The notes under the pieces: model-generated
What the model saw: only the letters and a program-made list of their open reading frames with translations
Told to the model about the DNA's origin: nothing
Databases searched by the model: none
Program-made: the position numbers and the translations under genes
Assembly: GCA_965261735.1 (NCBI GenBank)
Contig: OZ253470.1
Coordinates: forward strand, 1,920,001 to 1,984,000
Direction of reading: 5' to 3'
Source: Alphaproteobacteria bacterium
GTDB taxonomy: Bacteria; Pseudomonadota; Alphaproteobacteria; SHVV01
DNA: 64,000 nucleotides
Part shown: piece after piece, positions 41,674 to 55,593 of the stretch
Numbering within the stretch: the stretch's first letter is position 1
Layout of the letters: every line of letters starts with the position of its first letter

Positions 41674-42046
41674 GCATGAACGCGACGATCACCGGCAGCG
41701 TTACGCCGGTGGATAGCGGATCGTCGTTTTATTGTATTGGTTGAGACTCTCGTACAGTGCGCTGAATTGCTGGTGAAACGCGATCCAGTCGATGTCTGCT
41801 CCCAACTGCCGATGAATTTCCTGAAGGGGCTTGCTGCGATCCGTCAAACGCAGGATCGCCGCCGCGTGCGGTGGTAAGTCAGTCGACGACTTTTCCAGCT
41901 AGACATGTGAGCGGCGGTGCCATGTCGGCGTGCTTCTTCTGTGGTGCGTACACCGGGGTGCACCACATCAATGGGAGTGGATCAACTCCCTTCCTTGCTC
42001 AATGCGCGATCGGACACCTGCATATCGATCTTGAGGACCGTTGGAA

Positions 42047-42166
42047 TTAGGCCTGGGTGGCGAGTGCTTTGACTGTCCCGACGAGGCGGTAGACGCGTAC
42101 AGGTGCAGTGCGGCCCTTAACCTCCATCTCTCCGACCGGCTCGATATCGAAACTGCTGTCCAGATC
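42047..42166 (-). pseudogene. C-terminal fragment of a class III adenylate/guanylate cyclase
   Basis: FDIEPVGEMEVKGRTAPVRVYRL. Confidence 0.55.
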
Positions 42167-42359
42167 CGCGTCGAGCTCCGCATTCAGGACACGTTCCGAC
42201 AGCCCTTTCTTCAACTCGTCAAGCAGACCGTCCTGGGTGAATACCGTTTCCGGATCACGCCCCTCCAACAGCTGGTCCAATAGTTCCTTCTCGATTGCCA
42301 TAGGATGCTCCTTTCTTTTTCATCACTATGGCCCAAAGCACAAAATTCCGGATACTCCC
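42167..42359 (-). mobile_element. IS256 left-end fragment (copy of about 33212-33404)
   Basis: Reverse-complement match to the IS256 left end and MAIEKELLDQLL start. Confidence 0.85.
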
Positions 42360-42494
42360 GCAGAACTCCCTGGACAGCGCATGGCGGTTGGGCGGCGGAG
42401 AGGCGGCGATGAGCGTGCGCAGCACCACCATCTCTTGGGTGGTGAAGTCGCGCCCGTAGTACCGGCACTCGGCGTCGGCCGTCATCCTGGCGCC
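42360..42494 (-). repeat. copy of the DUF4338 5' region (about 32890-33024)
   Basis: Sequence GCAGAACTCCCTGGAC...GTCATCCTGGCGCC matches the first copy. Confidence 0.85.
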
Positions 42495-42769
42495 GTATTG
42501 TGCCGGAAGGCGACAAGTGGATGCGCATGGAAGCGCAAACGCCGCGCTTCGAAGCCGGTCACGTGTTGCTGCCGAAAGAGGCCCCGTGGCTCGCCACTTT
42601 CCTGGACGAACTGCTCGCCTTCCCGCGGGGACGGCACGACGACCAGGTCGACAGCGTCTCGCAGTTCCTCAAGTGGGCGTGGACCCACTCGCAGCGGTCG
42701 AAGGCGGTTGGAGGCGGCGCGATACTTGTCACACATGAAGGCAAATTCATGGATCAGCCGTTCCCGTAA
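42495..42769 (+). pseudogene. phage terminase large-subunit C-terminal fragment
   Basis: PEGDK..FEAGHVLLP..APWL..ELLAFPRGRHDDQVDSVSQ. Confidence 0.75.
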
Positions 42770-42832
42770 TCCCGAATCGAGGATCAGGTCCTAACGAATC
42801 ATCCTTGCATATCCGGTTAACGCCCATGACCG

Positions 42833-43717
42833 CTACATGTAGGGTGCCGCCACTCTCCCGAGTAAAGCTCGGCATAGGTTGGAGCAGAGGTGTCGCCCGC
42901 GATGCCGAGCAAGCTCGCGGATATGGCGCCAGTCCATGCAGATGTAATGGATGGCGCCGTCGCGGCTGTGCGTGCACAGGTGCTGCAGGACGGTTTCGAG
43001 GAAGTTTGAGAATTCGGCCTCGGACATCTCGCCCGATGCCATGGCGAACTCCTTGTGTCGCACACGCCCAAGTCCGCAGACATTGCCGTCGATCGGGACG
43101 TTGTAGGGTGGGTCCGTGAACACCATTTGGGCCAATTCGCCGTCGAGCAGCGTCTCGAAGGAACCCGGGTCCCTTGCATCCCCACACAGGAGCCGATGCT
43201 TGCCGAGTTGCCAGAGATCACCCGGGACGGTGATCGGTGGTGCGTCGGCGTCGATCTCCGGGACCCGGTCCGCATCGTCGTCGGGCTCGGTGGGACCGAG
43301 GACAAGGCCGTCGATCTCTGCCGTGTTGAAACCGATGACCTCGATATCGAAGTCGAGGTCGATCTCGCAGAGCGCCTTCAGCTCTATCGACAACAGTTCC
43401 TCATCCCAACCGGCCAGCTCGGCCAGGCGGTTATCGGCGATGACGTACGCCTGAACCTGTGCTTGGGTGAGGTCGCTCAGCCGGATTGCTGGGATCTCTT
43501 CGAACCCAAGCAGCTTCGCCGCTGCCAGACGCCCGTGGCCCGCGACGACCTGCCGGTCTTCATCGATCAGGATGGGGTTCGTCCAGCCGAATGTCTCGAT
43601 GGACGCAGCAATCTGCCGGATCTGCTTTTTCGTATGCGTACGGGCATTTCGCGCATACGGCTTGAGGGTCGAGATCCCGAGATGCTCAACCTTGAGATCC
43701 CGAACGCGCTCAGACAT
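42833..43717 (-). pseudogene. ParB-N domain + N4/N6 DNA methylase fusion, frameshifted and truncated
   Basis: LKPYARNARTH..FGWTNPILID..AGHGR..IADNRLAELAGWD; HRLLCGDA; FTDPPYNV; loses frame after WRHIREL. Confidence 0.8.
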
Positions 43718-43927
43718 CGGACGAGCTTTGTCAAGTTGACCGGATTCACTCCGAAATATCTGTAAATTGTCGATGGCTTCTCTACGCAATTTCAATGGCT
43801 TGGCCTCATGGAGAAATGCCGAAAACAGCCTACAATCAGTTAACTTGATGGTATGGACGCCCCCTACGGCTTCACGATGAGCCATACTGGAGTGTGTTGA
43901 ACAACCCAGACAGAGGGAGCGTCCACG

Positions 43928-44947
43928 ATGGATATTACGACAATTGGGTTTGATCTGGCAAAGACGGTGTTCCAGGTTCACGGTGCTGATGGTGAGGGAC
44001 GACCGGTACTACGGCGGAAGCTGCGCCGCGGGAAGGTGCTGGCGTTCTTCGCCGGATTGCCATCCTGTCTTGTCGGTATGGAAGCCTGTGCCTCTGCGCA
44101 CTATTGGGCTCGGGAACTGCAAGCACACGGGCACAAAGTTCAGCTGATTCCGCCTCAATACGTTCGTCCCTTCGTCAAAACGAATAAGAACGACGCAGCG
44201 GATGCGGAAGCGATCTGTGAGGCAGTGACGCGTCCGACGATGCGCTTTGCACCGGCGAAAAGCGCCGAGCAGCAGTCGGTTCTGATGCTGCACCGGGCCC
44301 GAGAGCTGTTGGTCCGTCAACGCACGATGGTGATCAATGCGCTTCGCGGCCACTGTGCGGAGCTCGGACTGATCGTCGCTCAAGGGGCGTCGAAGGTGGA
44401 GGAACTGGTTGCCATCATCGAAGATCCCGGCGATGTGCGACTGCCGCCTCTGGCACGCGAGGCGCTTGGCTCTCTGGTTGAGCAGCTCCGTTCTGCTCAG
44501 GCCCGGATCAAGCAGCTGGAAGTGACGCTTTTGGCATGGCACCGCTCCAACGAGGCGAGCCGCCGTCTTGCGACGATCCCCGGCGTCGGTGTCATCACCG
44601 CGACGGCGCTGGTCGCGACGATCGGCGATGGCGCACAGTTCCGCTCGGGCCGACAGCTTTCGGCCTGGCTCGGTCTCGTGCCCCGGCAGCACTCGAGTGG
44701 CGGCAAGGATAGACTGGGACGGATATCGAAGCGCGGGGATGGCTATATCAGGCGCTTGCTCGTGCATGGTGCGCGAACCGTGCTGCGCTGGCGCCGCGCC
44801 AAGCCGGGCACGGGGCCTGGCTGGACCGACCGGCTCCTGGCGCGGCGGCCGACAAACGTGGTGCTGGTCGCCATGGCCAATAAGGCAGCCCGTGTCGCCT
44901 GGGCACTGCTCAGGTACGAGCGTATCTACCGACCGACGCCGGCATAG
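43928..44947 (+). CDS. IS110 recombinase/transposase
   Basis: GFDLAK, MEAC, KNDAADAEAI (DEDD), IPGVG, GLVPRQHSSGGK, ANKAARVAW. Confidence 0.95.
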   Translation: MDITTIGFDLAKTVFQVHGADGEGRPVLRRKLRRGKVLAFFAGLPSCLVGMEACASAHYWARELQAHGHKVQLIPPQYVRPFVKTNKNDAADAEAICEAVTRPTMRFAPAKSAEQQSVLMLHRARELLVRQRTMVINALRGHCAELGLIVAQGASKVEELVAIIEDPGDVRLPPLAREALGSLVEQLRSAQARIKQLEVTLLAWHRSNEASRRLATIPGVGVITATALVATIGDGAQFRSGRQLSAWLGLVPRQHSSGGKDRLGRISKRGDGYIRRLLVHGARTVLRWRRAKPGTGPGWTDRLLARRPTNVVLVAMANKAARVAWALLRYERIYRPTPA

Positions 44948-44959
44948 CCAGCTGGCAAA

Positions 44960-45160
44960 CCGGGATCAAATTGCGAGGGTGACGACGATTTGATGGCGAA
45001 ACAGGGTTCCACCCGAGATCGGCCAAACCCGAGGCATTGTCCGAGCATCAAGCTCGTTAGTCTGACTGGGCGTCGATCTTTCGGATTCCATCAGGGCCAG
45101 CGGTCAGCGTACCGCAGCGAAAAGGCCGGATACATGACTGCAAGCTCTACCGCCGATTCA
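44960..45160 (+). ncRNA. predicted bridge/seek RNA in the IS1111 right non-coding end (boundaries approximate)
   Basis: Loop segments match target (GGCATTGTC 45033-41, TTAGTCTGAC 45057-66) and donor junction (CCATCA 45088-93, ATACATGA 45130-37), each pair flanking a hairpin. Confidence 0.8.
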
Positions 45161-45199
45161 AATCAGTTTTCCCCTTGCAACACCGGGGGCGTCCATACA

Positions 45200-45520
45200 T
45201 GACAATGCCCGCAGCTGTTCGCTGGTCATATTAGTGAGCTTGATCGTGGGAACATGATCCATGCCGAGCATCTTTGCAGCTTCGTGCCGGCCGTGACCCG
45301 CAACGACACGATTTTCTTCATCAATAAGAATTGGATTCGTCCAACCGAAAGTCTTTACGGATTCAATAATTTGACGAATTTGTTTTGTTGAGTGCGTGCG
45401 CCCATTTTTTTGAGTGCGCACGTCGAGATCTGATACAGGCCGGACCTCGACGTTCAGGTCGCAAATCCGAGAATGTCCAGGAGGAGTTGCCGGCTTGGGC
45501 AACGAAAGGTTCCTTGCCAT
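45200..45520 (-). pseudogene. ParB-N (methylase-associated) gene fragment truncated at the MITE/IS junction
   Basis: NGRTHSTKQIRQI..FGWTNPILIDE..AGHGRHEAAK. Confidence 0.75.
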
Positions 45521-45608
45521 TTCTTGGCTTCCAAGATTAGTTTTTGAAGGCGCAAGGATTCCAAAAAAATCCAAGTGAAAAAATTCGTCTACAAAATTTT
45601 GGACAGGT

Positions 45609-46330
45609 TTATTTGTCTTTCTTCCGTGGTCTTCCGGCGGATTTTAACTCCGACATGTATTCGTCCGGGATCTGACATACAGCTATCTTGCCCGTATTAG
45701 GCCATCCTTCTGTCCATTGGGGGGACCTCCAGTCTCCGGGAACGCGCCAAATATCGCCTTGCAACGGTGGTGCCGCCTTAGCGTGCGAATGGGTCCATGT
45801 CTCGCCCCAGTGGCGCAAGGCTTCCGACTCCAGCAGAAACGCCTGGAAATCCGTTGCATAATCATATCCGACTTCCGGCTTTTCCATAAATCGGAGGTCT
45901 CTCAACACCCAGGCTCCCCACAAGTGAGCGACCGACCGATATCGGGACCAACAATCATGAAGACTTGAGCGAGAACCGGATTTGCAATGCTGGCCTGCGA
46001 CTCTTTCCACAATTTCATTACGTTGTTAAGCGTAGCCAATCCGGGGTCCGTATAGCGCAGACCGAAATAAGTTTTAAGAATCTGACCCGCTGCTGTCGCT
46101 TGGTACCATCTCTTCTCTAAATCCGTTAGTGGTTGTCCCGCACCTTCTGCAATACGTTTCAGGTCGGAATACGGTAACTCTCCTCCTCGTCGATGAAACT
46201 CCTTATGTGGAGCAGCGAGATACTGAGAGGCAAACGCTTCAGATTTCGCTTGATCTTCTTTTAGGGGATGCAACATCACACCGAGAACTGCAGCGAAGGG
46301 TTCAGGGTGAGAAAGAGGTAGAATTGGCAT
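45609..46330 (-). pseudogene. hypothetical gene split by a frameshift (ORFs 45902-46330 and 45609-46010)
   Basis: Two overlapping ORFs, lower GC than flanks, WSRYRSVAHLWGAW motif. Confidence 0.45.
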
Positions 46331-46519
46331 GATCGATCTCCGAAAATTCCCGCTGTTCCTTCAGAAGACCCCATCCACACGGAGTTATAGATGAGGTCGC
46401 GGAATGGGAATTTGTCAACGGCGGAGTAAAATGGGGCCACCGCGGCGGTGTAAAGAAGAGCCACCGGCGGCTGCGAGCTTGTCCCCGTAGATCCTATGAG
46501 GCGACTCGGCGAGCGGCGC

Positions 46520-47119
46520 TACGGTGCCGCCGGCCAGGAATCCTTCGCCGTTGTCGCGCCGCACGATGTTCCGCAGCGCCGCGTTGGCCTCCATGGTCGA
46601 GGCATCGACGCCGATGCGCTCGCCCTTGATCAGCCCCGCCTCGGCGATCAGCACCAGAACCCAGTCGAAGACCGCCGCGTGGACTTCATGGGGCAGGCGC
46701 GTGCGGCTCCGTGACAGCTAGGAATGGTCCGGTACCCGATCACGGCTCCCCAGTCGCAGGAACGCCCGCAGCGGAAGCGAGTCCGAGCAGCGCCACTCCA
46801 GACCGCGCTCGCTGTCGATGCCCTCGAAGTAGCCCACCAGGTGCATCCGGAAATAGCGCCCGGGCGGCACCGAGGGCGCGCCCATCCGGGCCGCGTAATA
46901 AGGCCGGCAGCTCGCCTCGGCAAAGGCGTCGAAGCCGCCCTCGATCAGCTCCGACTGCAGGCGGTCATAAAACACATGACCCGGAGAGCGCGGCATCTCC
47001 GACCAGCTCACCATCAGGTCCCCCTGACCATCCTTCTGCCGTCCCACCGCCATCGGCGAATCCCCCTGCAAATCAGGGAACCAGAGAATCAGACGGCGCC
47101 GACTTAATCAACGGGCTGC
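46520..47119 (-). mobile_element. IS1182/IS5-like transposase 5' remnant with internal stop
   Basis: GHVFYDRL, GAPSVPP, GIDSERG, VPDHS*, GVDASTMEANA; TIR-like AGCAGCCCGTTGATTAAGTC. Confidence 0.7.
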
Positions 47120-47619
47120 TGAGCCCCATGCTGATCAGCCCGTGCAGCGCGGCGGAGGAACAGACGAAGGTATCGAGGGCTTCATTGCGCTCGCCATCTG
47201 GCGAACAAGATGGCGCGCATCATCTGGGCGCCGACGGTCAAGAAGGAAACCTACCGGGCGCCAGCAGCGGTTGCCGCTGGTCCGGAATAGCTACCCGGAA
47301 GAGAAAGGCTGTTTAGAATTGGAACGCCGGGCTCTGCGGACACGGTCTTGAGGGCGTGATGCGCGGATAACCCCGGTTGGTGCGGTTGGGACGAAAGACA
47401 ACATAGGGGCGAAAGGTCAGAAAAACGGGGTCGGAAAAACCAGTATGAGACGCAGGGCTGTGAAGCATACCGCCTCACCGATTTGGATCCGATCCACGAA
47501 CACCATATGGGCCCGCGGCGCATGAATGCCGCTTCACAGAGGCCGGACATACGACAGTACCTGACCGCATGTCACAAGTTGTTCAAATTCCTTCTCGCGC
47601 TGCAGGGGGCGTCCACATA
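47120..47619 (+). mobile_element. 3' remnant of a second, different IS1111-group element, retaining its non-coding end
   Basis: LANKMARIIWA..YRAP* then a non-coding end finishing GGGGGCGTCCAC-ATA. Confidence 0.8.
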
Positions 47620-47790
47620 CGTCTCATGGCAGACATCGATACCGCGCTCGGACAAGAGATCTTCGACTTGTCTCAGCGACAACGGGTAACGGACATACAT
47701 CATGACCGCGAGGCGGATGATCTCGGGCGAACTGTTGAAGTAGCGGAAGGGATTTAGCCTATCTATCGGACGTTGCCGAGTATTACCATC
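47620..47790 (-). pseudogene. IS6-family transposase 5' fragment, cut at the CHET motif
   Basis: NPFRYFNSSPEIIRLAVMMYVRYPLSLRQVEDLLSERGIDVCHET. Confidence 0.85.
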
Positions 47791-48009
47791 TTGCGCTTGG
47801 CGCCGATCCGGCATTCGGGCCTGTCACGTAATCCAGCGCATCCCAAAGCCGACACCGTTTGGGGTCGGCGAGAGCCGTACTCGCTTCATGAGTTGTCGTC
47901 AGTCATTTCGTTCAATTGGCGCAAGCTGCTCGGTCTGGATGAACATAGCTGCTCCGGTGGTCTGTGCGGCGGCGGTGTGCAGGGTGAAATAGCACGAATT
48001 CGGCGCCGA

Positions 48010-48600
48010 TCAATTCTCGCCTCCGCCGGCTCCGGAAGCGGGGGTGCCGATGTGATGGCGGTTCAGCAACGGCAGCTGGGTCAGAATGAACAGGAAGGTC
48101 AGCCCCATGATGCCGAACACCTTGAAGCTTACCCAGAAATCGGTGCTCTGGGTACGCCAGACCGCTTCGTTGAGGAGCGCCATCGCGACGAAGAAAATTC
48201 CGAAGCGGAAGGTGAGCCGGCGCCAACCTTCGTCGTTCATCTGCCAGGCCGCGCCGAGGACCGGCTTGAGGAGGGAACGCCTGAAGGCGAGCCCGCCCAG
48301 CAATACGGCCGCGATCAGCCCCTGCACGATGGTCGGCTTGAGCTTGATGAAGGTCTCGTCGTTGAGCCAGAGGGTGAGGCCGCCGAAGACGCCGACCACC
48401 CCGGCGGTGATCAGCGGCATCAGCGGCACCCGCCGGCTGACAGCGTAGGAAAGCGCGAGCGCGGCCGCGGTGGCGATCATCAGTGCGGCGGTTGCGGTGA
48501 TCAGGTCGAAGAGGACATAGGCACCGAAGAAGACCACCAGGGCGCCGTACTCGGTAACGGGTTTGACGGCCCGGTTCCGTTCGCTTGTCGTGGTCGGCAT
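48010..48600 (-). CDS. ispZ: septation protein A / inner-membrane protein YciB
   Basis: EYGALVVFF, VFGGLTLWLNDETFIKLKPT, GWRRLTFR, LNEAVWR, WVSFKVFG. Confidence 0.9.
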   Translation of the reverse strand: MPTTTSERNRAVKPVTEYGALVVFFGAYVLFDLITATAALMIATAAALALSYAVSRRVPLMPLITAGVVGVFGGLTLWLNDETFIKLKPTIVQGLIAAVLLGGLAFRRSLLKPVLGAAWQMNDEGWRRLTFRFGIFFVAMALLNEAVWRTQSTDFWVSFKVFGIMGLTFLFILTQLPLLNRHHIGTPASGAGGGEN

Positions 48601-48609
48601 CGGCGACTA

Positions 48610-49332
48610 GTGGATAAGATCTGACATTTGAATCCCGAGGGGGATTCCTGCCGGACTCTCTGTGTGCGAGTCTGGCTCATGCGCCCAGGAATCAGCATCA
48701 TCTTGAGCCCTGCCGACCGTCGTCGTCTGGAGGCGCTCGTCGAGGACCGCAACGTCGCCCAGAAGCATGTTTGGCGCGCACGGATCGTACTGCACAGCGC
48801 TGATGGCATCGGCACCAATGGGATCATGCGCCGGACCGGCAAGTCGAAGACCTGCGTCTGGCGCTGGCAGGAGCGCTTCGCCCAAGAGGGCTACGACGGT
48901 CTGCTGCGCGACAAGACACGGCCATCGCGCATCCCGCCGCTCGGCCCGGAGGTGGCCGAGCGGGTGGTCGCCCTGACGCTGAGCGACCCGCCCGCCGAGG
49001 CGACCCACTGGGTCGCCGCCATGATGGCCAAGGCGACCGGCATCAGCGTCAGCTCGGTGCGGCGCATCTGGCGCGCACACGGGCTTCGGCCGCATCGGGT
49101 GCGGCAATTCAAGCTTTCGAACGATCCCGACTTCGTCGCCAAACTGCGCCATGTGGTCGGGCTCTACGTCGACCCGCCGGCCCACGCCATCGTGCTCTCG
49201 GTCGACGAAAAGTCGCAGATCCAGGCGCTCGACCGCACCCAGCCCGGCCTGCCGATGAAAAAGGGCCGTCTTGGCACCATGACCCACGACTACAAGCGGC
49301 ATGGCACGACCACCCTGTTCGCCGCCCTCAAC
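48610..49332 (+). mobile_element. IS630-family element, 3'-truncated
   Basis: Left end after CTAG; [39 protein letters not shown] then breaks. Confidence 0.85.
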
Positions 49333-49481
49333 GGAGTCGGGCGGGCACCGCGTCCGGTCCACGCTCCATTCGCCTTCGGCGGACATAGCAAACAGTCGCT
49401 GCGCGAGGAGAACGGTCGTCTGGGCGCACTGCCGAGTCACGAACTGGTGTCGGCTACGTGGATACGTTGCGGGCATTGTCA

Positions 49482-50835
49482 TGTATGGACGCCCCCGGTG
49501 TTGCAAGGGGAAAACTGATTTGAATCGGCGGTAGAGCTTGCAGTCATGTATCCGGCCTTTTCGCTGCGGTACGCTGACCGCTGGCCCTGATGGAATCCGA
49601 AAGATCGACGCCCAGTCAGACTAACGAGCTTGATGCTCGGACAATGCCTCGGGTTTGGCCGATCTCGGGTGGAACCCTGTTTCGCCATCAAATCGTCGTC
49701 ACCCTCGCAATTTGATCCCGGTTTGCCAGCTGGCTATGCCGGCGTCGGTCGGTAGATACGCTCGTACCTGAGCAGTGCCCAGGCGACACGGGCTGCCTTA
49801 TTGGCCATGGCGACCAGCACCACGTTTGTCGGCCGCCGCGCCAGGAGCCGGTCGGTCCAGCCAGGCCCCGTGCCCGGCTTGGCGCGGCGCCAGCGCAGCA
49901 CGGTTCGCGCACCATGCACGAGCAAGCGCCTGATATAGCCATCCCCGCGCTTCGATATCCGTCCCAGTCTATCCTTGCCGCCACTCGAGTGCTGCCGGGG
50001 CACGAGACCGAGCCAGGCCGAAAGCTGTCGGCCCGAGCGGAACTGTGCGCCATCGCCGATCGTCGCGACCAGCGCCGTCGCGGTGATGACACCGACGCCG
50101 GGGATCGTCGCAAGACGGCGGCTCGCCTCGTTGGAGCGGTGCCATGCCAAAAGCGTCACTTCCAGCTGCTTGATCCGGGCCTGAGCAGAACGGAGCTGCT
50201 CAACCAGAGAGCCAAGCGCCTCGCGTGCCAGAGGCGGCAGTCGCACATCGCCGGGATCTTCGATAATGGCAACCAGTTCCTCCACCTTCGACGCCCCCTG
50301 AGCGACGATCAGTCCGAACTCCGCACAGTGGCCGCGAAGCGCATTGATCACCATCGTGCGTTGACGGACCAACAGCTCTCGGGCCCGGTGCAGCATCAGA
50401 ACCGACTGCTGCTCGGCGCTTTTCGCCGGTGCAAAGCGCATCGTCGGACGCGTCACTGCCTCACAGATCGCTTCCGCATCCGCTGCGTCGTTCTTATTCG
50501 TTTTGACGAAGGGACGAACGTATTGAGGCGAAATCAGCTGAACTTTGTGCCCGTGTGCTTGCAGTTCCCGAGCCCAATAGTGCGCAGAGGCACAGGCTTC
50601 CATACCGACAAGACAGGATGGCAATCCGGCGAAGAACGCCAGCACCTTCCCGCGGCGCAGCTTCCGCCGTAGTACCGGTCGTCCCTCACCATCAGCACCG
50701 TGAACCTGGAACACCGTCTTTGCCAGATCAAACCCAATTGTCGTAATATCCATCGTGGACGCTCCCTCTGTCTGGGTTGTTCAACACACTCCAGTATGGC
50801 TCATCGTGAAGCCGTAGGGGGCGTCCATACCATCA
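49482..50835 (-). mobile_element. IS110-family (IS1111 group) element, copy 2, inverted relative to copy 1
   Basis: Near-identical reverse complement of 43846-45199; same ends and same bridge-RNA region. Confidence 0.92.
49734..50753 (-). CDS. IS110 recombinase/transposase
   Basis: 339 aa; differs from copy 1 at two visible residues (P/S, L/F). Confidence 0.95.
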   Translation of the reverse strand: MDITTIGFDLAKTVFQVHGADGEGRPVLRRKLRRGKVLAFFAGLPSCLVGMEACASAHYWARELQAHGHKVQLISPQYVRPFVKTNKNDAADAEAICEAVTRPTMRFAPAKSAEQQSVLMLHRARELLVRQRTMVINALRGHCAEFGLIVAQGASKVEELVAIIEDPGDVRLPPLAREALGSLVEQLRSAQARIKQLEVTLLAWHRSNEASRRLATIPGVGVITATALVATIGDGAQFRSGRQLSAWLGLVPRQHSSGGKDRLGRISKRGDGYIRRLLVHGARTVLRWRRAKPGTGPGWTDRLLARRPTNVVLVAMANKAARVAWALLRYERIYRPTPA

Positions 50836-51056
50836 GAGTAAATGGGCTTGAGCTATTACGCTTCAGATTGGGTGGTGCTGTTTCAGTTAGGCTGATAATC
50901 GACGACTAAAGTTTCCTTCCGTGGCGTCTCACGCGGGCGCCAGATAAATCCCCTCTAACCCACTTTCGTTAGCAGCGTTTTCTTTGGTGCGGGGCAGGAT
51001 TTGTTGAAGCCCCTACAATTCGTCGCCCCGTTCAAGTCCCTTTTCGCCCCATCACG

Positions 51057-51935
51057 TCAGGCCAAGGCGGTTTCCAACAAGGCCAGCAACCGGCTCCAGG
51101 CCCGCTCCGCCTGGGCCTCGTTGTACACGGCGGAATCCGGAGGGCACCAGCCGTGCTGGGTGCCCGCGTACACTTCGATCTCTGCCGGCAGCCCGGCGGC
51201 AGCAAAGACCTCGCGCAGCACGTTCTTGGCCTCCGGGTCTTTCCTGTTGTCGTTCTCGGCGATCGCGAACAGATAGTGCGCTCGCATGTTGTCGACGAGC
51301 AGATGAGGGCTGTCGGGTGTATCGGTCACGAGTCTGCCGCCATGAAACGATGCGCCGGCACCTATCCGGCCGGGAAGCGCCGCTGCGGTGCGCATGGTGA
51401 TGGGGCCACCCATGCAGTATCCCATCGTCCCCATCTTCCGATCGCTGGCCACCGCGTCCTGACTGTCGAGGAACCCGACGAAGGCCCTCGCGTCCGTCAC
51501 ATTGGTCTCGGGGCTCAACGAGCGCATCAGGGGAAAGATCTTGTCGCGCGTCACTTTGTCTCGAAACGAGGCGCCCTCCGGCAGGACCGGCGCCTTCATG
51601 GTGCGGTAATAGGGATTGACGACCAGCGCTGCATACCCCGACTCGGCCAGCCGCCGCCCCATCTGCTCGAAGGCGGGCCGCAGGCCGAGCGCATCGGGCC
51701 AGATCAGCACGCCTGGATGGACGCCGCTCGAGGGGTGCACGAAGTGACAGTCCGCCGTGCCGTCGGGCGTCAACACCTCGACATCCCCGGCCGCCACTTC
51801 CAGCGCGTTCGCGGCCCGCGGCAAGAGCATGGCCAGCCCCGTCCCGACCGACAGCGCCGCGAACTCGCGCCGGGTCAGGTTTTTCGGACGGCGCAAGTAG
51901 TCCTCCGCGTCACGGAGTGCTCTCTCGTCGCACAC
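51057..51935 (-). CDS. dienelactone hydrolase family protein with Tat-like signal
   Basis: TRREF twin-arginine motif; GYCMGG nucleophile, SFHGG, HGWC; GGGAGG RBS before GTG. Confidence 0.88.
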   Translation of the reverse strand: MCDERALRDAEDYLRRPKNLTRREFAALSVGTGLAMLLPRAANALEVAAGDVEVLTPDGTADCHFVHPSSGVHPGVLIWPDALGLRPAFEQMGRRLAESGYAALVVNPYYRTMKAPVLPEGASFRDKVTRDKIFPLMRSLSPETNVTDARAFVGFLDSQDAVASDRKMGTMGYCMGGPITMRTAAALPGRIGAGASFHGGRLVTDTPDSPHLLVDNMRAHYLFAIAENDNRKDPEAKNVLREVFAAAGLPAEIEVYAGTQHGWCPPDSAVYNEAQAERAWSRLLALLETALA

Positions 51936-52169
51936 GAGTGCCTCCCATCTCACCATGGTTCGCATTTTAGCCTAACACTTTTTTGCCCAGCAGCACGGCT
52001 CGCGTGGCCGCGTTTCGGCGCGGCGCTCGGGCGGGTGCCGGGATGCCGTAACAGCTCGGACCGAGAGCCGGAGCTCCCACGACCGCGCTCGGCCGCGACG
52101 CAGCCGCCAACGATAGTGCCCATGCGACCGCGTCGCGCGCGTCCACTGTTTTTCGACCCCGACCCTGGG

Positions 52170-54147: not shown

Positions 54148-55593
54148 ATGTCACCCACCAACGTCCTGTTCATCACATCCGATGAGCACAATCGAGACAT
54201 CGCGGGCTGCTATGGCAACACGCTTGTGAAGACGCCCAACCTCGATGCCTTGGCTGAACGCGGGACGCTGTTCACCAACGCCTACACCAACAGTCCAATC
54301 TGCGTGCCGGCGCGTGCAAGTTTCGCCACCGGCCGCTACGTCCACCAGATACGTTGCTGGGACAACGGCAATCCCTACGATGGCCAGTGGCCCTCGTGGG
54401 GGCACCGTCTCATGGACTCGGGTCATCAGGTCACGTCGATCGGCAAGCTTCACTACCGGTCAGCGGACGATGACAACGGCTTTGTCGAGGAAGTTCTACC
54501 TCTCCATGTCGTCGATGGAATTGGCGATGCCCGCGGCCTTTTGCGAAAAGACATGTCGCGGCGAACGACGGCCAGCAACTTCGCTGAGCGAGTGGGCCGC
54601 GGAGGCTCAAGCTACTCCGACTACGATCGCAGCATTGCTGATGCGGCCAGCGGATGGCTCAACGAAGAAGCACCGCGGCATACAGACAAGCCGTGGGCAC
54701 TTTATGTCTCGTTTGTCACGCCCCATTATCCCTTGATCGCGCCGGACGAATATTTCGATCTCTACGATCCAGACGAGATGCCAATGCCTCGAATGTACAG
54801 CGCAGCAGAGCGCCCTCGACACCCCGTGATCGATACCCAACGGCGTATCTGGAACTATGACGATTACTTTGATGAGGAGCGTGTCCGACTTGCCGTCGCC
54901 GCCTATTACGGCCTTTGCAGTTTCATGGACTCCTGCATTGGCCGTGTTCTCGCAGCGTTGGATGACTGCGGCCTTCGTGACTCAACCACAGTGATCTACT
55001 CGAGCGACCACGGTGAGAATCTTGGCAATAAGGGGTTATGGGGGAAGTCGGTGCTGTACGAAGACTCGACCGCCGTTCCTCTCATCATGGCCGGTCCGAG
55101 TGTGTCGGAGGGAAAACGTGTCTCCGCGCCCGTGTCGTTGGTGGATATCTACCCGACTATCATCGAGTGTACCGGGGAGGAGGACGCTCCGGACGAAGCC
55201 CCAAGACCAGGCACGTCTTTGCTATCCGTCGCTGCCGGTGACGTTCCGGAGCGTACGGTCCTCAGCGAATACCACGCTTCGGGTTCGATAACGGGTGAGT
55301 TCATGTTACGGGTCGGCCGCTGGAAATATCATTACTATGTCGGCTACGAGCCGCAGCTATTCGACCTGGAAACCGATCCTCATGAAACCGTGGACTTGGC
55401 GGCCGATCCGGAGCATGCCGAGACACTGGCAATGTGTGAAGTTGAGCTCCGCAAGGTCGTGGACCCAGAAGCCGCAAACGACCTCGCTTTCCAGGATCAG
55501 GCAGCAAAGATCGAGGCGCTTGGCGGTCTCGATGTTATCTCCCAGCGGCAAGAGCACGGCTACACCCCCGCCCCCGGTCAGCCGATCGAGTAG
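54148..55593 (+). CDS. formylglycine-dependent sulfatase (choline-sulfatase-like)
   Basis: NVLFITSDEH, CVPAR (CxPxR), GKLH, PHYP, SDHGE. Confidence 0.92.
   Translation: MSPTNVLFITSDEHNRDIAGCYGNTLVKTPNLDALAERGTLFTNAYTNSPICVPARASFATGRYVHQIRCWDNGNPYDGQWPSWGHRLMDSGHQVTSIGKLHYRSADDDNGFVEEVLPLHVVDGIGDARGLLRKDMSRRTTASNFAERVGRGGSSYSDYDRSIADAASGWLNEEAPRHTDKPWALYVSFVTPHYPLIAPDEYFDLYDPDEMPMPRMYSAAERPRHPVIDTQRRIWNYDDYFDEERVRLAVAAYYGLCSFMDSCIGRVLAALDDCGLRDSTTVIYSSDHGENLGNKGLWGKSVLYEDSTAVPLIMAGPSVSEGKRVSAPVSLVDIYPTIIECTGEEDAPDEAPRPGTSLLSVAAGDVPERTVLSEYHASGSITGEFMLRVGRWKYHYYVGYEPQLFDLETDPHETVDLAADPEHAETLAMCEVELRKVVDPEAANDLAFQDQAAKIEALGGLDVISQRQEHGYTPAPGQPIE

Follow-up and report, generated by a model that had tools for sequence, protein, structure and literature searches.

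The window, as the whole 64,000-nt stretch of DNA analysed here is called, contains at 47198-47619 (+) the dead right-hand (3') end of an RNA-guided IS1111-family insertion sequence. This remnant consists of the final 30 codons of a transposase gene followed by a 329-nt non-coding right end (Table 1). Every string that the first-pass annotation had listed was found again in its place when the window sequence was re-read. Its left boundary, 47120, is too far left: homology with full-length copies spans positions 79-498 of the query 47120-47617 and puts the true start at 47198. The left part of the element has been replaced by an IS5/IS1182-like transposase fragment. The 70 bp between this fragment and the remnant (47128-47197) have no match elsewhere in the same genome; 47120-47198 is matched at 84% in another genome (G057, L022).

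Table 1. Features at the remnant and its junctions, in window coordinates
Feature	Position	Strand	Details
IS5/IS1182-like transposase fragment	46534..47127	-	PF05598; 96% identical to another copy in the genome
IS1111-type transposase gene, 3' end	47198..47290	+	translation LANKMARIIWAPTVKKETYRAPAAVAAGPE, the final 30 codons, plus stop 47288-47290
Non-coding right end encoding bridge/seek RNA	47291..47619	+	329 nt downstream of tnp
Target-binding stem-loop	47428..47495	+	outer stem 47428-35/47488-95, second stem 47440-43/47483-86, internal loop, distal hairpin 47455-47471
Right target guide AUGAGACG (DNA ATGAGACG)	47445..47452	+	complementary to top strand, core CG + TCTCAT
Left target guide CCUCACCG (DNA CCTCACCG)	47473..47480	+	identical to top-strand left target + core
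Candidate right donor guide CACCAUAUG (DNA CACCATATG)	47501..47509	+	faces left end ATGG(A/G)G; one internal mismatch, 1-nt offset from core
Left donor guide ACAUACG	47547..47553	+	identical to right-end ACATA + core CG
Right subterminal inverted repeat GGGGGCGTCCAC and 3-nt extension ATA	47605..47616 and 47617..47619	+	
Core dinucleotide CG	47620..47621	.	common to target and donor; CG at both junctions of full-length copies
IS6-family transposase fragment	47620..47758	-	codons ~3-47, ends ...VCHET at junction

At its other side, the element end GGGGGCGTCCAC-ATA directly adjoins CGTCTCAT at 47620-47627. Read on the minus strand from 47620, this flank (...RYPLSLRQVEDLLSERGIDVCHET, also given as ...FRYFNSSPEIIRLAVMMYVRYPLSLRQVEDLLSERGIDVCHET) is the N-terminal part of an IS6-family transposase. 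As the first-pass annotation had stated, the gene is cut exactly at CHET, that is, after codon 47. The fragment stops near 47758 and contains neither a start codon nor a terminal repeat. An intact relative of this IS6 transposase (L056) is 231 aa long and is matched by NF033587 (173 bits) and PF13610 (5e-40).

No full-length copy of the remnant's IS was found in its own genome (G000). A scan for the guide pattern, covering one genome per species, yielded a single further locus with IS6-like guides, L060, which holds a full-length copy 95.5% identical to the remnant, ungapped, over all 422 nt. Judged from this nucleotide identity, the remnant and L060 are the same IS. The transposase of L060 (346 aa; PF01548 3e-15, PF02371 1e-21, NF033542 307 bits) belongs to the RNA-guided IS110 family, which bears out the earlier assignment of the remnant to the IS1111 type. 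A second remnant lies in the same genome as the window (G000:C1:2960513-2960718, L002) and is 94% identical over 206 nt. It likewise adjoins an IS6 gene after CHET, and this gene resumes at about residue 102 on the other side, indicating that an internal deletion took the left part of the element together with 54 IS6 codons. The third junction was found in G002, a genome of another genus in the same family, where the last 101 nt of the element are followed by IS6. The same genome contains five full-length copies of a sister element, 87% identical and encoding a 343-aa transposase.

The known features of the IS1111 family can be compared with these copies. In the available portion of PMC11187229, the family is described as having 7-nt left and 3-nt right extensions beyond 12-bp subterminal inverted repeats, a long non-coding region downstream of tnp as its hallmark, and a seekRNA in which the complement of the top strand lies 5' of the match to the bottom strand, the two overlapping in the target. 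A DEDD (RuvC-like) transposase of 330-350 aa with PF01548 and PF02371 is encoded by L060, of which the window keeps 30 codons, and the downstream non-coding region measures 329 nt. Subterminal inverted repeats of ~11-13 bp with 7/3-nt extensions are present, the right end being seen in the window and the left end in full-length copies. The latter start with ATGG(A/G)GTGGACGCCCCC and finish with GGGGGCGTCCACATA, with CG outside both ends; GTGGACGCCCCC is the left partner of the right repeat. If one CG is counted with the element, the repeats are 12 bp long and the extensions are 7 nt (left) and 3 nt (right). The left end predicted by the first-pass annotation, CATATGGTGTGGAC, is near, but not identical, to the actual CG-ATGG(A/G)GTGGAC. 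The guide order also agrees with that of the seekRNAs as far as the same portion describes it: the top-strand complement (47445-52) precedes the bottom-strand match (47473-80), with CG as their overlap in the target. Finally, insertion is specific for site and orientation, as seen at all three IS6 junctions and in the sister element, of which three copies in G002 and one in G162 occupy one istA site.

The target-binding stem-loop and its guides

The secondary structure of the RNA was examined with an alignment of 15 distinct sequences from the window, both genomes, a MAG, metagenomes and two more distant resident families. In the target-binding stem-loop, 95.7% of the cells are paired, vs at most 58% with slid partners, and four pairs show compensatory change; none of 500 shuffles equalled the observed values, and an independent RNAalifold run was made as well. 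The hypervariable columns of the alignment are only the two sides of the internal loop, exactly at ATGAGACG and CCTCACCG. A fold of the single sequence 47405-47600 (-56.6 kcal/mol; z = 0.14 vs shuffles) was no better than shuffled sequence and is uninformative. An Rfam scan of 42000-52000 returned no match at E <= 1.

The two 8-mers had already been proposed as target guides, and their position in the internal loop, where 12 guide types match their own flanks, bears this out. The guide 8-mer on its own is not rare in the window, with four matches and 2.7 expected; its significance derives from its position in the variable loop, where the guides of relatives match their own flanks. Neither of two other matches to ATGAGACG in the window (16870 and 54406) is IS6. 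The sequence GGGCAC CG TCTCAT at 54392-54413, in a sulfatase-like gene, agrees at 11/14 positions with the target predicted for the window; the site is uninterrupted, and the agreement is read as chance.

The rule was derived from the 12 guide types in 36 distinct insertions: the 5' side of the loop is the reverse complement of the core and right flank, and the 3' side is the left flank plus the core. The right guide matches its own flank at a mean of 6.47 of 8 positions (n = 34, nine at 8/8), compared with 4.00 for the flanks of other types (n = 374, one at 8/8). For the left guide, the corresponding means are 7.00 (n = 28) and 4.07 (n = 308, zero at 8/8). These guide types with known flanks make up a small, naturally reprogrammed panel on one scaffold, on which rules for predicting targets could be tried in the IS1111 branch; IS621 has been studied more.

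The strongest single observation is a Watson-Crick covariation between guide and flank at one position among three near-identical copies. The pair is U:A in the window (guide AUGAGACG, flank CGTCTCAT), C:G in the second remnant (guide ACGAGACG, flank CGTCTCGT) and G:C in L060 (guide AGGAGACG, flank CGTCTCCT). A one-letter change of the guide thus accompanies a one-letter change of the landing site, which amounts to a natural demonstration at the sequence level.

Donor-like guides had also been noted, and they fared differently. The left donor guide, ACAUACG, is supported by its covariation with the right end across three element families, in which ACACACG accompanies ACACA-CG, ACAGATG accompanies ACAGA-TG and ACATACG accompanies ACATA-CG. 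The other string, CACCATATG, is present, but its fit to the left end includes a mismatch and an offset of 1 nt, and the left end shows next to no variation among the copies. The core lies within the pairing of both target guides and of the left donor guide; the candidate right donor guide ends in UG or AG in place of CG, offset by one base. For IS621, the core is described as belonging to every guide pairing in the available portion of PMC11208160. A further candidate for the right donor guide, GATCCACG (47490-97), was rejected, as the alignment identifies it as the 3' strand of the outer stem.

The IS6 target and the deleted left flank

Combined, the guides specify the target CCGCAC-CG-TCTC(A/G)T (run together, CCGCACCGTCTC(A/G)T). 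Its counterpart on the coding strand of IS6 is CA(T/C) GAG ACG GTG CGG, or H-E-T-V-R. That the guides jointly specify these codons had been claimed from the window alone, and the claim is upheld by the second remnant, whose guides match uninterrupted IS6 exactly. Its left-flank guide, CCGCACCG, is identical to the sequence of uninterrupted IS6 genes. In a survey of uninterrupted IS6 of the same subfamily at 16 distinct places in several families of the class, CCGCAC-CG-TCTCGT was found at four, a 14/14 match to the guides of the second remnant. In this manner, the guide recovers a flank that has been deleted. The left guide of L060 likewise matches the CCGCAC-type uninterrupted site. In the genome of the second remnant itself, its guides match six intact IS6 copies of another subfamily at 13/14 positions (TCGCAC CG TCTCGT).

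The window copy departs from this consensus by one letter. Its left target guide has one mismatch to CCGCAC+CG, with U where every examined IS6 copy has G. The prediction of the missing left flank from the guide thus holds for the IS6 consensus CCGCAC (4/16 places) but not for CCTCAC itself (0/16). Either AGG was the arginine codon of the IS6 copy that was entered, or this letter changed once the element was dead. Uninterrupted IS6 copies with TCTCAT have GG or TG, not CG, at the core. Several of the uninterrupted IS6 genes (L043, L047, L050, L052, L053, L058, L094) read ACC or ACA for the threonine, which gives GG or TG in place of the CG core; such copies might be unusable as targets.

In a sample of 401 genomes of the class, the junction of the element with IS6 at CHET was seen three times, twice in G000 and once in G002, with neither base nor orientation differing. 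The element-IS6 junction is bridged by X1 record 4 and X8 record 23 with at least 31 letters on each side; the source sample may be among these sequencing runs, which do not count as independent support, and X6 record 15, with 16 letters on the left, was excluded. An RNA-library contig of run X2 has the element end and CG followed by CGCGATGAAGCGTTATGGCCGGCCAGC, which encodes AMKRYGRPA, a mid-gene IS6 motif, in sense orientation. It may represent a relative inserted at another IS6 site.

Do the three junctions record repeated programmed targeting? They could descend from a single, possibly accidental, ancestral insertion into IS6 that was then multiplied with IS6 by trans-mobilisation or horizontal transfer. 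This would suit the fact that all three are truncated remnants at one base and in one orientation, so that the left junction in IS6 is not directly seen, and that no intact copy in IS6 was found in the genome-contig pattern scan, the metagenome scans or the 401 genomes. However, the element parts are closer to one another (94-97%, 3-6 differences per 103 nt) than the adjoining IS6 parts (88-89%, 15-16 per 137 nt), with Fisher p = 0.015 in one of the three pairs, which are not independent. The difference speaks for separate insertions into IS6 copies that had diverged beforehand, but is only suggestive. In addition, the compensatory change of guide and flank between the window and the second remnant would require two matching mutations, and given the 14/14 match even one event would have been on-target. 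A single ancestral insertion is accordingly considered unlikely.

The position of the intact copy bears on a second alternative. L060 lies in an IS21-family istA gene (NF033546), at CTGCGC CG TCTCCT. The first-pass annotation had counted intact copies outside IS6 against its reading; the sole intact copy is indeed in istA, with its right guide retuned to match the site. IS6 might then be an off-target, the natural target being another gene such as IS21 istA, and the insertions in IS6 persisting since dead IS copies tolerate them. The 8/8 match of the L060 right guide to the istA flank agrees with this, as does the presence of the sister lineage in IS21-like, IS1380-like and IS5-like transposase genes. 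On the other hand, the left guide of L060 matches the istA flank at 6/8 positions and the IS6 consensus at 8/8, and three of the four known insertions of the remnant's IS are in IS6, at a single base. On this balance the off-target explanation is quite improbable. From its guides, L060 is read as a probable recent move from IS6 to a similar-looking istA site; the opposite order is possible.

The sister lineage (guides CACGGCGCG and GCUGAAGCG) is found in G002 within other transposase genes. Its copies L029, L031 and L033 in G002 and L087 in G162 share one istA site, used in two genomes, in an IS21-like gene after ...GVPEELLFDQM, beside a conserved DDE-region motif. The other two copies in G002 are in an IS1380-type gene and an IS5-type gene. 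When the flanking frames of relatives were compared with Pfam (n = 10), six contained transposase or integrase domains, one Fic and one HsdR_N, and two had no match. Survival in dispensable DNA may contribute to flanks so rich in transposases and integrases.

Copies beyond these genomes were sought in two further collections. A distant-mode search of a plasmid collection matched 144 records, none over 80% of the query, and returned no copy of the element; the matches were just IS6 genes and, on plasmids of rhizobia, RNA scaffolds of ~75% identity. A metagenome scan with a 29-nt pattern gave no match. With 20 nt of the donor segment, 22 loci were obtained. In 21 of them the sequence is a right end that shares the donor type (...GTCCACATA-CG) and has varied guides; the other, L069, looks like a chance match. 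None of the 12 metagenome loci with a visible target loop has IS6-type guides.

Proposed mechanism and suggested activity in trans

Taken together, the remnant is very probably a dead IS1111-family end whose guides were written for the H-E-T-V-R coding motif of the IS6 transposase. In active copies, the DEDD recombinase would work with an RNA encoded by the non-coding right end. Within this RNA, the first stem-loop carries the two target guides in its internal loop, and these specify codons in the N-terminal DNA-binding region of the IS6 transposase. In the downstream segment, ACAUACG matches the element's own right end, ACATA+CG, and the second donor guide would face the left end. Recombination at the CG core would place the element antisense in the IS6 transposase gene and inactivate that gene. 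Later deletions would then have taken away the left end, the greater part of the element's transposase gene and what else there was of IS6, and the remnant is presumably now without function. Being a dead fragment, the locus is expected to have no effect on the cell.

The first-pass annotation had suggested that the orphan RNA might still work in trans, that is, be made and guide a related transposase. The window copy has kept its stems and its four guide segments intact, the donor guide is one letter off the ends of a 15-copy resident family, and seekRNAs are not strictly limited to very close transposases, according to the available portion of PMC11187229. Against this, the genome has no full-length copy of the IS, and the nearest resident transposase is 63% identical. 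No promoter-like site was found in 46900-47900, and no genome site lies within one mismatch of the window's predicted target, so that with no cognate transposase, promoter-like site or near target the suggestion finds no support. Moreover, the matching IS6 subfamily remains only as seven fragments, and none of the 15 distinct resident-family insertions examined is at a CGTCTC flank. Activity in trans is thus highly improbable. For the target of the second remnant, 15 genome sites within one mismatch were counted, six of them in IS6. RNA-library runs X1 and X2 (small shares) gave contigs covering 47346-47504, 47404-47504 and 47399-47589 at 90-95% likeness; these come from relatives, since their letters at the guide positions differ, and their presence in an RNA library is no proof of transcription.

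A second IS1111-type element and related systems

The window also contains another IS1111-type element, with full-length copies at 43848-45199 (+) and 49482-50833 (-), a 339-aa transposase and the core TG. Nine of its ten right ends genome-wide are followed by TG ACA(A/G)(T/C)G(C/T)C, the tip of the IS6 terminal repeat, which is completed by left flanks like CCCATTTACTC TG. In the RNA of this element, GGCAUUGUC and UUAGUCUG match TTAGTC-TG-ACAATGCC. Guides and flanks both match the IS6 terminal repeat, and the element thus targets this repeat 8 bp from the tip. The earlier claim that two unrelated elements in the locus both target IS6 holds for the target but not for the lack of relationship: both transposases are of the IS110 family, and that of the other element is 47% identical to the L060 transposase. 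As to the target population, the VCHETVR subfamily of IS6 is present in G000 only as the seven fragments, two of which end at an IS1111-type junction; two other IS6 subfamilies, 46% identical, are represented in the genome by ~15 full-length copies.

How does the remnant's IS compare with known RNA-guided elements? As far as the available portion of PMC11187229 describes them, ISEc11, ISKpn4/ISPst6 and ISPa11 (Siddiquee et al., 2024) share with it a DEDD transposase of ~340 aa, the repeats, the non-coding region and the guide order, and natural reprogramming of guides between close relatives is known there also. As targets, the introduction of that paper names a short linear site, attC sites and REP sequences, whereas here the target is a coding motif of the IS6 transposase; unlike the elements in that portion, the window copy is a dead remnant. 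The bridge RNA of IS621, of the IS110 group (Durrant et al., 2024), also has two guide-bearing segments, for target and donor, with left guides pairing to the bottom strand and right guides to the top strand, in the available portion of PMC11208160. By the same source, the present RNA differs in lying in the right end instead of the left and in its reversed guide order; the core is CG (TG in relatives) instead of CT, and the consensus fold obtained here does not give the donor segment the form of a simple internal loop.

Other transposable elements have served as specific landing sites of IS1111-family elements before. To judge from titles cited in PMC11208160, IS1383 enters the inverted repeats of IS1384, and IS4321/IS5075 enter the terminal repeats of Tn21-family elements. 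The second IS1111-type element of the window resembles these cases in its use of the IS6 terminal repeat. Unlike them, as far as those titles tell, the remnant entered transposase coding sequence. The guides of IS1111-type elements can thus be directed against the gene body of a different transposase and not solely against repeats. A literature search found no paper on an IS1111-type element aimed at an IS6 transposase gene, which does not prove that there is none. The mechanism, the RNA layout and natural reprogramming are already described in the available portions of PMC11187229 and PMC11208160. New here are a lineage whose target is a coding motif in a foreign transposase, a clean three-way covariation of guide and flank, and the recovery of a deleted flank from the guide alone.

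A broader reading is put forward tentatively, and with more doubt than confidence. An IS1111-type clade in this bacterial family may parasitise other mobile elements, with guides against conserved coding motifs or terminal repeats of IS6, IS21 transposons and integrases that track single-base, often synonymous, variants of the target. It would thereby knock out rival transposases, the matching IS6 subfamily being left here only as fragments, and copies with ACC for ACG, which have no CG core, might represent escape variants. At a second place in the genome of L060 (L062:1480-1650), 128 bp from the sister lineage's target stem-loop lie between two IS6 terminal repeats (..TAGTCTGACAATGCC, fragment, GGCATTGTTAGACTAAATGGG), indicating that IS6 elements also cut into an IS1111-type element.
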